From a plasmid, in the NCBI RefSeq assembly GCF_988243305.1, contig NZ_OZ547137.1: DNA of 64,000 nt, one strand, 5' to 3'. A program made the position numbers. This document shows, piece by piece, positions 30,901 to 33,900 of this stretch. Each line of letters starts with the position of its first letter. The first letter of the stretch is position 1.

Positions 30901-33900
30901 TGGGGACCACGCCGGTGATCATGCCATTAGTAAATGAACCAAAGTATTTGCCGGTACCTGGCCAGAAGGTATGCAGTACCGCCCCCAGAAACAGGGGGAC
31001 CAGCATCATTCCTCCCGGAATTTTTTCAACTGTTTTTTTGATATTCATTATCGTCCCTTTTTAATGTCAGATACGGCCAGTCAGAGCACCATGATGGCTT
31101 CAATTTCAATAACAGCCCCCTGCGGCAGGGCGGCGATACCCAACGTAGCCCTGGCGGGGTACGGTGTCGAAAAGTATTCCGACATAATGGCGTTAAATCG
31201 CGGGAACATGTTCACGTCGGTCAGATAGGCATTCAGCTTCACAATATCCCTATCACTCCCTCCTGCGGCCTCTGCCACCGACAGCAAATTTTTAAACGCC
31301 TGACGGGCCTGTTCATCGAAATCTGTTGAGACCACTTGCATGGTATGCGGGTCAAAACCGACCTGACCGGCGAGATAAATGGTTTCCCCGGCTTTCACCG
31401 CCTGAGATAATGCCCCACCGGGGGCAGGAGCCCCGGTGGTATAAATGATGTCTTTTTTCATGATGTGCCTCCTGTCCTTTTGCGGTTACAGACCGAACAA
31501 TTTGTCTAGGCAGTCTGCCTGGTCGGCTGTTAACTGGCCGTTATGATTCCGTGAGACCGGCGTCATGTAGCCATACTTTCTGGAAATGGCGGTTTTGATC
31601 GTACTGACAAAATCATCACCAATGGCATATATCCCGGAAAGTCGCCCAATTTCTTTGTGTAATCCGGCGACTTCATTGAGGTCGCCGGCCCGATAGGCCC
31701 GCATAATTTGGGCAAAAAGCTCCGGCACCACATTATTCAGTCCGGAAAGAACTCCGGCGCCTCCGTTCATCAGATTGGGTACAAAGTACTCATCAAAACC
31801 GGCGAATACGGCAAAATCTTTTCTCAGCGGTGTGACCGCGTTGACGATGGCCCGGGTGTGAGACGCACAGTCCACAGTATCTTTGATGCCAATAAACCGC
31901 GGGCAGCTTTCCGCCAGCATTCTGACAAGGTGAGCATCCACATCACATCCGGTTCTGGCCGGGAAGTTATAGATAAACCAGTCACCGGCAAGTTTACGGT
32001 CAAGACTGCGGAAATAGCTAAGTAACTGACGGGATGTCTGGGCGTAGTAATACTGTGGCAGTACCATTACTGCGTCATAGCCACTGTCATAGGCGGCATC
32101 AGCCAGATAAAGCATGTCCTCTTCAACGGTAGATGAAATATGGGCAATCAAAGGGAGGTCACTCATTTTCCGGGCTTCCAGGATGAGCATTGCCCGTTCG
32201 CGGACGCTCATTGTGGCAAATTCCCCGATGGTACCTGATAGCAGAATGCCGTTGATGCCGGAATCAGAAAGGCGTGCCATATGTTTTTCCAGCCCCGTGA
32301 GGTCTATCTGACCGCTGTCATCCAGAGGAATGACGGAAGGGCAGACTGCCCCTGAAAACTTCATTGTCTGATTCATATTATTTGTTCCTTTTGCGTGGTA
32401 TCAGCGTCATGCCTGCTGATACCCGCCCCGGCCTTTACGGAAGAAGGATGGATATCAGTAGTCCAAACACCAATATAGTGATTTAGTAATCACTATATTG
32501 GTGTTTGGACTGACTGGGAAATCATCTTTATAAGAACTGTGCGTGAGTTCAAGAATTCATTCGTGTCGTTCCGGTGAACTCATATTGACAGGTCAATTGG
32601 CAACTGCGTCAGGTTACCAAGGGAAGCGGTTGAGCGTCTTTATAGCGACGATCGGCACGCAAGGTCATCATAAATGCCAGGGCGGATGCTCTGCCGGATG
32701 GCGTTAGCAGGACATTTTTTTCAGCCAAGCGCGCTGCTGCGGCCATTGCGACGCCTGCATCAGCGGCAACCAGATCAACTGTCTGGAAGGCTCGGTGCCG
32801 ACCATTCTCAACCGCGGCGGCTTCGCCAATAAGCTGCGTGCCGACTGGCAGTGGGTGATCGGCATCGGCGGCCTCGGCCATATCGCCATTAAGCTGCTGC
32901 GGGCGATGGGCGCCGATCGCGTAGTCAATAGCCGCGATCCTGAAGCCTTAAAAGTGCTGGCCGGGCAGTTTGACCTGAGCATCAACACCGTGGCGGTGGA
33001 TCTTGACTGGCAGCCGTACTTCGAAGCCCTGTCCTAGGGCGGCAACTTCCACACCGTCGACGCGGTGATGAAGCCGTTCCCGGTACCGGCCTTTACCCTT
33101 ATCGGCGACGACTGCAGCATCTCCGGCTCGGCGATCGGTAACCCATCCGAACTGCGCACGCTGAGGAAGTTCGCCGGACGCAGCAAAGTGGCTCCGACCA
33201 CCGAGCTGTTCCCGATGTCGCAAATTAACGAAGCGTTGAAACACGTTCGCGAAGGCAAAGCCCGCTACCGCGCGGTGCTGAAAGCCGACTTATGATGGTT
33301 CTCCTCCACCGGGCGGCCCGCTCGCCCGGCGTTTTCCCCGTTGCTTCATCAAACCATCGTTTCCCCGTCATGCCTCTGTAATCATAGCTTCCCACAATTA
33401 GGGCTTCGATAAATGGCTGAACGAGATGTGCGTAACCATGAGAAAGACCTGGCTTCCCTGGCTGATCCTGTCGCCTTCCCTGCTGTTTTTACTGCTGTTT
33501 ACCTGGTTTCCGCTGGGGCGTTCGGTGTATGACAGCCTGTTTGATACCCGCATGGCCAACGCGCAATACGTCGGGCTGGATAACTTTGCCCGCCTGTTTG
33601 CCGATAACGTCTTCTGGCAGTCGCTGGGCAATAACCTACTCTATATCCTGCTGACGGTGATGCCCGGGGTGACGCTCGCCCTGCTGCTGGCGGTCGCCCT
33701 GAGCGAGAACCATCGCGTCAACCGTTGGCTGCGCACCGCCTTCTTCTTCCCGATGATTATCCCGATGGTCAGCGCCGCTGCACTGTGGCTGTTTATCTTT
33801 ATGCCCGGCCTCGGCCTGCTCGACCACTATCTGGCAAAGCTGTTCGGGCCGATGAACAACAACTGGCTGGGGCGCAGCAACAGCGCGCTGCTGGCCCTGG

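Follow-up and report, generated by a model that had tools for sequence, protein, structure and literature searches.

A decayed ahr (yjgB) gene remnant at the edge of a Klebsiella-type segment on an Escherichia coli IncF plasmid

Results

We analysed a stretch of 64,000 nucleotides of plasmid DNA (contig NZ_OZ547137.1), referred to here as the window, around two short open reading frames at 32795..33037 (80 aa) and 33065..33295 (76 aa). Both begin with GTG and share a frame, and the raw sequence and the ORF list confirm the preliminary description in that they are split by a TAG codon at 33035–33037. Homology to ahr begins at 32729, 66 bp 5′ of the first ORF in the same frame, where the pseudogene annotated by RefSeq/PGAP also begins, so that the coordinates of annotation and remnant agree. 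The features of the locus are as follows.

32633..32742, minus strand: internal fragment of BREX-1 pglZ, 110 bp with a 1-bp frameshift (93–94% identity to E. coli pglZ)
32729..32739, no strand: 5′ junction pglZ/ahr, GCGCGCTGCTG, identical in pglZ and matching ahr at 10 of 11 bases
32729..33295, plus strand: ahr (yjgB) pseudogene remnant (alignment to the K. pneumoniae gene, tblastn, NCBIfam, PDB, PGAP)
32736..32813, plus strand: 78-bp segment (26 codons, Cys-rich CGHCDAC...C lobe), present here (alignment with pMB5646_1)
32853..32860, plus strand: scar of a 117-bp (39-codon) in-frame deletion, with the 8-bp direct repeat GGGTGATC remaining as a single copy
32861..32878, plus strand: surviving GxGxxG dinucleotide-binding motif, GIGGLG (translation)
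32902..32913, plus strand: scar of a 60-bp (20-codon) in-frame deletion, with the 12-bp direct repeat GGCGATGGGCGC remaining as a single copy
33035..33037, plus strand: amber codon, Tyr254 TAC to TAG (raw sequence, alignment to the K. pneumoniae gene)
33296..38445, plus strand: Klebsiella-type block downstream of ahr (95.5–95.7% identity to K. pneumoniae)
33309..33329, plus strand: G+C-rich hairpin after the ahr stop, followed by GTTTT (fold −15 to −16 kcal/mol, conserved with K. pneumoniae)

When aligned with the intact gene of K. pneumoniae, the remnant proves to comprise codons 93–339 of 339, less 39 and 20 codons from within. The locus had been described as the C-terminal half of a dehydrogenase starting at 32795; it is indeed a C-terminal part, but one that is interrupted by the 39- and 20-codon gaps and starts at 32729. 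The joined translation matches the E. coli YjgB/Ahr structures 7bu2/7bu3 with E = 4e-92 and Pfam ADH_zinc_N with 1.5e-11, and tblastn of ahr against the 64-kb window returns a single significant match at 32729–33292 (E = 1e-106; all others E > 0.2). Among NCBIfam models, NF047908 (Ahr) is the top family (199.8 bits, E = 5e-59), followed by a family at 36.8 bits. These 199.8 bits are spread over three stretches and lie under the curated equivalog cut-off of NF047908, which is 470 bits for a whole protein; the intact K. pneumoniae ortholog scores above it, with 536.7 bits.

The proposed YahK/AdhP type is not borne out by alignment. As candidate parents, YahK (structure 1uuf, E = 3.5e-15) and AdhP (structure 4gkv, 3e-11; NF006940, 36.8 bits vs a cut-off of 344) both fall far behind YjgB, although YahK and YjgB belong to one cinnamyl-alcohol-dehydrogenase branch (PMC7287880). 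Judged by its sequence, the remnant is a descendant of ahr/yjgB, which encodes an NADPH-dependent aldehyde reductase, and not of YahK or AdhP. Its DNA identity to the chromosomal ahr of K-12 is 74–80%, and a match to the query region is present in 5274 of 5426 E. coli genomes. Homology to an intact gene and disabling lesions in independent sequences together make the locus a pseudogene by operational definition.

Reading begins at codon 93 and meets TAG at codon 254, in place of an uninterrupted frame of ~339 codons with its own start; the length is exactly 339 aa in 80 of 80 species-level orthologs. Codons 1–92 and the promoter are missing. The 117-bp deletion took residues about 137–173, including the catalytic Cys152, and the 60-bp deletion took residues about 193–212, including Ser199 and Lys204. 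The catalytic zinc ligands of Ahr are Cys41, His63, Glu64 and Cys152, and its NADP 2′-phosphate selectors are Ser199 and Lys204 (PMC7287880). All four zinc ligands are therefore absent, because they lie in codons 1–92 or the 117-bp segment, and both selectors are absent because they lie inside the 60-bp deletion, while the GxGxxG motif described for Ahr/YjgB (PMC7287880) survives. The amber codon that had been held to inactivate the gene is real, but it is one of at least four lesions, next to the 5′ loss and the 117- and 60-bp deletions. The wider assignment as a non-functional MDR zinc dehydrogenase remnant that lacks its N-terminus and carries a genuine in-frame amber codon is upheld by homology and by agreement across assemblies.

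At its 5′ end, the remnant had been thought to abut a palindrome-bearing region. The partner at the junction is instead the 110-bp minus-strand pglZ fragment, and the palindrome lies ~210 bp to the left of the junction. Homology to pglZ extends to 32742 and thus overlaps the start of ahr homology at 32729; the crossover is placed within 32736–32739, because T32735 derives from pglZ and C32740 from ahr. G+C content climbs at the junction from 44–52% to 62%. Over 110 bp, the fragment is 93–94% identical to pglZ from E. coli strain 2/0 and to a pseudogene of pglZ carried by pE17EC0402-2; it represents about codons 232–268 of roughly 844–865, so that only ~36 codons are left; the ORF homologous to it matches TIGR02687 (BREX-1 PglZ type A) at positions 232–318. 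PGAP labels 32633–32748 on the minus strand 'hypothetical protein, frameshifted, incomplete'. We considered this label as a circular annotation artefact and rejected that view, since the entry proved to be a real pglZ fragment. It is not a complete pglZ in a BREX operon, and no other BREX genes are annotated in ~19 kb around the locus on a matching plasmid. An Rfam scan of 32300–33450 gave only sub-threshold matches of eukaryotic miRNA hairpins to the palindrome, which we regard as noise.

On the other side, homology to K. pneumoniae spans 32729 to 38445. Beyond the remnant, the block contains two ABC permeases, a phosphodiesterase, an ATPase and a substrate-binding protein, all five ORFs being intact and in the order of the K. 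pneumoniae chromosome; the same synteny is found in Raoultella, K. michiganensis and K. grimontii. We searched for a donor among 80 ahr loci at species level, each taken with flanks of 10 kb. The nearest species representative is K. pneumoniae, at 92–96% identity. A contiguous DHDPS–BREX–ahr arrangement was not found, with a DHDPS module or pglZ present within the 10-kb flanks of none of the 80 loci.

A first alternative reading is that the remnant is retained as regulatory DNA, i.e. as promoter, 5′ leader or insulating terminator of the ABC-transporter/phosphodiesterase genes. The native ahr–permease intergenic region and the hairpin after the stop are kept and are conserved with K. pneumoniae, and the 3′ 380 bp of the remnant are free of deletions in all copies examined. 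The intergenic region, however, lies outside the remnant, so that ahr coding DNA would not be needed for such a role. The hairpin might possibly be the native ahr terminator, but it is no more stable than shuffled sequence (z = −0.08), and a terminator scan called no terminator. The 3′ part is moreover the fastest-diverging stretch, at 91.9% identity to K. pneumoniae vs 95.7% for the operon. We consider regulatory retention very unlikely.

On a second reading, one or two small proteins (80 aa, 76 aa or a read-through product) are still made from the remnant and have a new role, e.g. as a Rossmann-fragment binding protein. Both ORFs are present, the GxGxxG motif is intact and all three deletions, including one of 78 bp in sister plasmids, are in frame. 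In-frame lengths could be taken to mean that translation is selected for, but direct repeats of at least 8 bp in ahr genes are in codon phase in 78–85% of cases. This phase bias suffices to explain them: with 78% of such repeats in phase in 78 ahr genes, in-frame deletions are to be expected, and three of them are unremarkable. A promoter scan made no plus-strand call within the remnant or immediately 5′ of it, the sole plus-strand call (32352–32381) lying within the DHDPS gene.

The pattern of substitutions also argues against a maintained protein. Seven of the 11 non-synonymous differences fall at positions that are invariant in the 80 species-level orthologs, and 10 of the 11 remnant states (stop codon included) were never found among these orthologs; replacements at invariant core residues include G262D, G278D, R280C and T287I. 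The ratio of non-synonymous to synonymous codons relative to K. pneumoniae is 10:21 for the remnant and 50:133 for the five intact neighbours, which is no significant difference (Fisher p = 0.67) and gives no indication of relaxed selection by itself. The case for relaxed constraint thus rests on which residues changed, because the codon ratio resembles that of the neighbouring genes. Since the split from the divergent plasmid pGF4-A, i.e. after inactivation, both lineages summed have acquired four non-synonymous and three synonymous changes.

Comparison among plasmids shows the same tendency. The 78-bp segment is found in 59 of 190 locus-carrying genomes and missing from the other 131, its loss having occurred between copies of the imperfect repeat GC(T/G)GCGGC. 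Most plasmids therefore lack 26 more codons, including the GTG start at 32795, and erosion continues, since 131 of 190 genomes have lost this further 78 bp. Taken with the substitutions and the repeat phase, these data make continued expression as small proteins highly improbable.

We finally assessed the reality of the amber codon across assemblies. The stretch matches E. coli IncFIA/FIB/FII plasmids at 99.7–100%. Of the 190 complete E. coli genomes carrying the locus, 189 have an identical 60-mer around the stop codon, and the 190th likewise has TAG. Plasmid pGF4-A has the same junction, both deletions and the TAG; these four features are common to every copy found. On PLSDB plasmids, the 5′ part of ahr is absent save for two K. 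pneumoniae records, and intermediate forms were not found. A tblastn search detected no trace of codons 1–92 or of the two deleted segments elsewhere in the 64-kb window. That the TAG arose from faulty sequencing or assembly of a gene that is intact or nearly so, or that an intact upstream half has been overlooked, is a reading for which we found no support and whose probability is negligible, given the concordance of 190 independent complete genomes and the absence of the N-terminal 92 codons and the deleted segments from both the window and all E. coli PLSDB plasmids.

Discussion

The data are very probably explained by 32729–33295 being a dead, eroding copy of ahr that forms the border of chromosomal DNA of Klebsiella type carried by an E. 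coli IncF plasmid. A Klebsiella-type segment, consisting of ahr followed by the ABC-transporter/phosphodiesterase operon, would have reached the IncF plasmid with ahr as its edge. All four rearrangements would have arisen by illegitimate recombination at short repeats or by replication slippage in unselected DNA, and the host chromosome would retain an intact ahr of its own. Judging from its sequence, the remnant presumably yields no enzyme and is itself without function.

A more specific history can be proposed, although we regard it as unlikely: the scar at 32633–33295 may record how F plasmids captured chromosomal Klebsiella DNA from beside the island hot spot at the leuX tRNA gene, perhaps along with a BREX island, and how repeated short-repeat deletions then whittled it down. 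If this were true, lineages within the ST131 plasmid family would be cleanly marked by the deletion of 78 bp (131 of 190 genomes) and by the paired changes in the palindrome.

The locus is ordinary, a passenger gene in decay that borders a block gained by horizontal transfer in a very well-sequenced plasmid family, and as such it matters little. Its modest uses are (i) the correction of the family name to ahr/yjgB, (ii) a worked example of pseudogene erosion via deletions at 8–12-bp repeats, in which the junction and all three deletions show repeats, and (iii) the presence or absence of the 78-bp segment, which could mark lineages within ST131 IncF plasmids.

The pseudogene itself is already known from RefSeq annotation, where PGAP labels it 'zinc-binding dehydrogenase; internal stop; incomplete; missing N-terminus'. 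The pEC958 paper and long-read ST131 papers do not discuss the gene. For pEC_L8 and pEC_L46, the genes named in a figure legend by Smet et al. (2010) include ugpB, ugpC, araQ, ugpA, icc, kdgT, tdcF and 'yigB' (PMC2887853); 'yigB' on these maps probably stands for yjgB. ST131-type IncF plasmids in RefSeq (e.g. ACSTDA_RS25680) carry the same locus at the same coordinates as an annotated pseudogene, but the annotations of RefSeq and of pEC_L8/pEC_L46 make no mention of the 117- and 60-bp deletions, of pglZ as the partner at the junction or of the 78-bp polymorphism.

Compared with E. coli Ahr/YjgB (b4269; PDB 7BU2/7BU3), the remnant has matches to the Cys-rich lobe, to the GxGxxG motif and to the last 130 residues, and it lacks residues 1–92, about 137–173 and about 193–212 and has a stop at 254. 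YahK and AdhP belong, like the parent of the remnant, to the MDR zinc-dehydrogenase superfamily, but their matches are far weaker than that of YjgB. The chromosomal ahr of K. pneumoniae (CP125156 460124–461143; ATCC 13883) has the same downstream order of ugp-like ABC transporter and phosphodiesterase genes, with a DNA identity to the plasmid locus of 98.5% for the 185 bp at the 5′ end of the remnant, 91.9% for the 382 bp at its 3′ end and 95.7% for the operon of 5.1 kb. The K. pneumoniae gene, however, is intact (339 aa) and has the tRNA-Leu(CAA) gene leuX upstream, where the remnant has the pglZ fragment and the DHDPS module instead.

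Parent gene and lesions of the remnant

The sequence and the mechanical ORF list both bear out that ORFs 32795..33037 and 33065..33295 share one frame and are separated by a TAG at 33035-33037. Translation of this frame extends the dehydrogenase similarity upstream to about 32729, and the joined translation matches Pfam ADH_zinc_N (1.5e-11) and, at E = 4e-92, the E. coli YjgB/Ahr crystal structures 7bu2/7bu3; the structure match falls into three separate stretches, a first sign of internal gaps. Its top family is NCBIfam 'NADPH-dependent aldehyde reductase Ahr' with 199.8 bits, far ahead of AdhP with 36.8 bits, which rules out YahK or AdhP as parent and overturns the YahK/AdhP-type assignment of the preliminary description. 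Against the same Ahr equivalog, whose cut-off is 470 bits, the intact K. pneumoniae protein reaches 536.7 bits. Since Ahr is the top family for both remnant and K. pneumoniae ortholog, the parent gene is ahr (yjgB). The locus is already annotated as a pseudogene: for 32729..33295, the RefSeq/PGAP entry reads 'zinc-binding dehydrogenase; internal stop; incomplete; missing N-terminus'. The genes drawn for the related plasmids pEC_L8 and pEC_L46 in 2010 include ugpB, ugpC, araQ, ugpA, icc, kdgT, tdcF and 'yigB' (PMC2887853); we take this 'yigB' to be yjgB.

Alignment to the K. pneumoniae gene resolves four classes of lesion.

Lesions of the ahr remnant, 32729..33295 (+)
5' truncation: loss of codons 1-92 together with all sequence 5' of them
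32853-32860: scar of a 117-bp in-frame deletion (39 codons), a single copy of the 8-bp repeat GGGTGATC left
32902-32913: scar of a 60-bp in-frame deletion (20 codons), a single copy of the 12-bp repeat GGCGATGGGCGC left
33035-33037: amber codon, Tyr254 TAC to TAG

The catalytic zinc ligands of Ahr (Cys41, His63, Glu64 and Cys152) and its NADP-specificity residues (Ser199 and Lys204; PMC7287880) all lie within the missing parts, so amber suppression would not give back an enzyme. The gene had been described as a C-terminal half inactivated by the amber codon. The TAG is real but not the sole cause of inactivation, since truncation and the two deletions also took key residues; likewise, the N-terminal part is indeed lost, but what remains is no contiguous half, being interrupted by the 39- and 20-codon gaps. 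Among 80 species-level orthologs, each exactly 339 aa, seven positions that are changed in the window are invariant (S95, I235, G262, G278, R280, T287 and F339), and the window's residue at changed positions is almost never found. Of these, S95C does not count as a genuine replacement: its T stems from the junction partner, pglZ.

The 5' junction and the palindrome

The N-terminal loss had been placed at a junction with the palindrome-bearing region. The palindrome, ~210 bp to the left of the true junction, is part of another module; the actual partner is a fragment of the BREX-1 gene pglZ (32633-32742, minus strand, 93-94% identical to pglZ of E. coli), covering 110 bp left of and overlapping the remnant start. 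This internal piece carries a 1-bp frameshift and has the DHDPS upstream region on one side and the ahr remnant on the other; PGAP labels it only 'hypothetical protein, frameshifted, incomplete', and no other BREX gene is annotated nearby. The pglZ and ahr homologies overlap in GCGCGCTGCTG (32729-32739), identical in pglZ and matching ahr in 10/11 bases; thus, the opposite-strand fragments are joined at a short near-identical stretch, and their joining resembles the internal deletions in kind. The minus-strand ORF 32609..32881 (90 aa) is a chimera, its first part antisense to ahr and its last part pglZ in frame; some plasmid records carry a shorter form as hypothetical protein WP_000796505.1, and it is almost certainly not a gene.

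The palindrome (32456-32516; perfect 24-bp arms, fold -43 kcal/mol, z = -11) appears native to the DHDPS-RidA-KdgT/IclR module (29279-32376). Imperfect versions of the inverted repeat, together with a TGAACTnACGCAC box, also precede modules with a DHDPS of only 79-85% identity, so that the palindrome is probably an operator and not a scar of the junction. Outside these plasmids, the DHDPS-family gene has its closest relatives, at 79-85%, solely on metagenome or Logan contigs; those with a name, from Orbaceae and Budviciaceae, reach only about 67% identity, which places the source organism of the four-gene module outside the named genomes.

At the paired positions 32460/32512 the window has T..A, the sister plasmid pMB5646_1 C..G and the divergent plasmid copy pGF4-A (NZ_CP172218.1) T..G. 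The 93-bp palindrome stretch matches the window exactly in only 2/190 genomes, with 185 in the 95-99% identity band; the examples listed from this band have two mismatches each, as expected for the C..G form of pMB5646_1. Over a 1041-bp query, several near-identical plasmids reach 99.8% identity to the window, about two mismatches, a number that fits 32460 and 32512 as their only differences. Template-switch correction in quasi-palindromes would yield concerted double changes, and the T..A/C..G difference looks like one, a candidate for template switching.

Distribution and ongoing erosion

Of 5426 complete E. coli genomes, 190 carry the 1-kb region, which is 99.7-100% identical to E. coli plasmids; the carriers are IncFIA/FIB/FII plasmids, mostly from human isolates. 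In one strain, E. coli strain 131, the whole block is chromosomal (NZ_CP093011.1, 4465155-4478195) and lies beside a truncated phage tail gene; it comprises TA genes, the IclR-KdgT-RidA-DHDPS module, the ahr remnant and the transporter operon. A 60-mer centred on the TAG is identical in 189/190 genomes, and the single outlier, pGF4-A from chicken meat, has the TAG too, which excludes a sequencing error. Nor is there an intact upstream half: nothing similar to the missing ahr parts occurs elsewhere in the 64-kb window, and in PLSDB the missing 5' part is found on no plasmid, only in two K. pneumoniae records.

pGF4-A branched off earlier. It has the junction, both deletions and the TAG in common with the window, keeps four ancestral bases where the window changed (I235S, T287I and two synonymous) and has three changes of its own; the changes that both lineages accumulated after they separated add up to 4 non-synonymous and 3 synonymous. 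Two further differences lie where it aligns to window about 32369 and 32628. An IS3-family element takes the place of the whole DHDPS operon, reaching ~3 codons into the gene, and ten extra bases, GTCATCAGGC, beside the left end of its pglZ fragment resemble the pglZ sequence GTCATAAGCC, indicating that the left pglZ boundary has been eroding too. In 131/190 genomes a further 78 bp (window 32736-32813) have been lost between the imperfect repeat GC(T/G)GCGGC, and the window therefore represents the less eroded minority form.

Intact counterpart in Klebsiella

The K. pneumoniae chromosome CP125156 (filed among plasmids) has an intact gene for a 339-aa 'NAD(P)-dependent alcohol dehydrogenase', and 3' of it come the genes that also follow the remnant in the window: ABC permeases, phosphodiesterase, ATPase and substrate-binding protein. 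Homology to K. pneumoniae has its first base at exactly 32729 and its last at 38445, and G+C content, 44-52% on the left, rises abruptly to 62% within the remnant. The ahr-operon synteny recurs in Raoultella and other Klebsiella species; K. pneumoniae is the nearest species representative to remnant and operon among the 80 species-level ahr loci compared. Identity is 98.5% over the 5' 185 bp of the remnant (32729-32913), only 91.9% over its 3' 382 bp (32914-33295) and 95.7% over the downstream operon; a mosaic donor allele or an unequal pace of decay may lie behind this difference within the remnant.

In K. pneumoniae, Raoultella, K. michiganensis and E. coli K-12, the neighbour 5' of ahr is tRNA-Leu(CAA) leuX, a known island integration site. 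A P4-type integrase adjoins a relative of the DHDPS module. Together, the two arrangements suggest, rather than prove, that both the left and the right block of the plasmid originate from near a leuX island.

Selection and interpretation

Remnant and K. pneumoniae gene differ, besides the TAG, by 10 further non-synonymous and 21 synonymous codons, a ratio not significantly above the 50:133 of five intact neighbours (p = 0.67). Regulatory use of the remnant for the downstream operon is very unlikely: the hairpin 3' of the ahr stop folds no better than shuffles and is not called by the terminator scan. Expression as a small protein is less probable still. The lengths of all three deletions, multiples of three, might be read as a mark of selection; we rejected this, since 78% of direct repeats of at least 8 bp within 300 bp are in codon phase across 78 ahr genes.

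The best explanation is a passenger pseudogene. Directly observed are the homology, the lesions with their spread among genomes and the breakpoint repeats; from these we infer its lack of function, the way the deletions arose and the order of events. A Klebsiella-type chromosomal block with ahr at its edge would have been captured on an F-type plasmid, and the plasmid ahr would then have been cut down by point mutations and successive short-repeat deletions, presumably through slippage or illegitimate recombination. This gene at the block edge would have been redundant in E. coli, whose own ahr matches the remnant at 74-80%.
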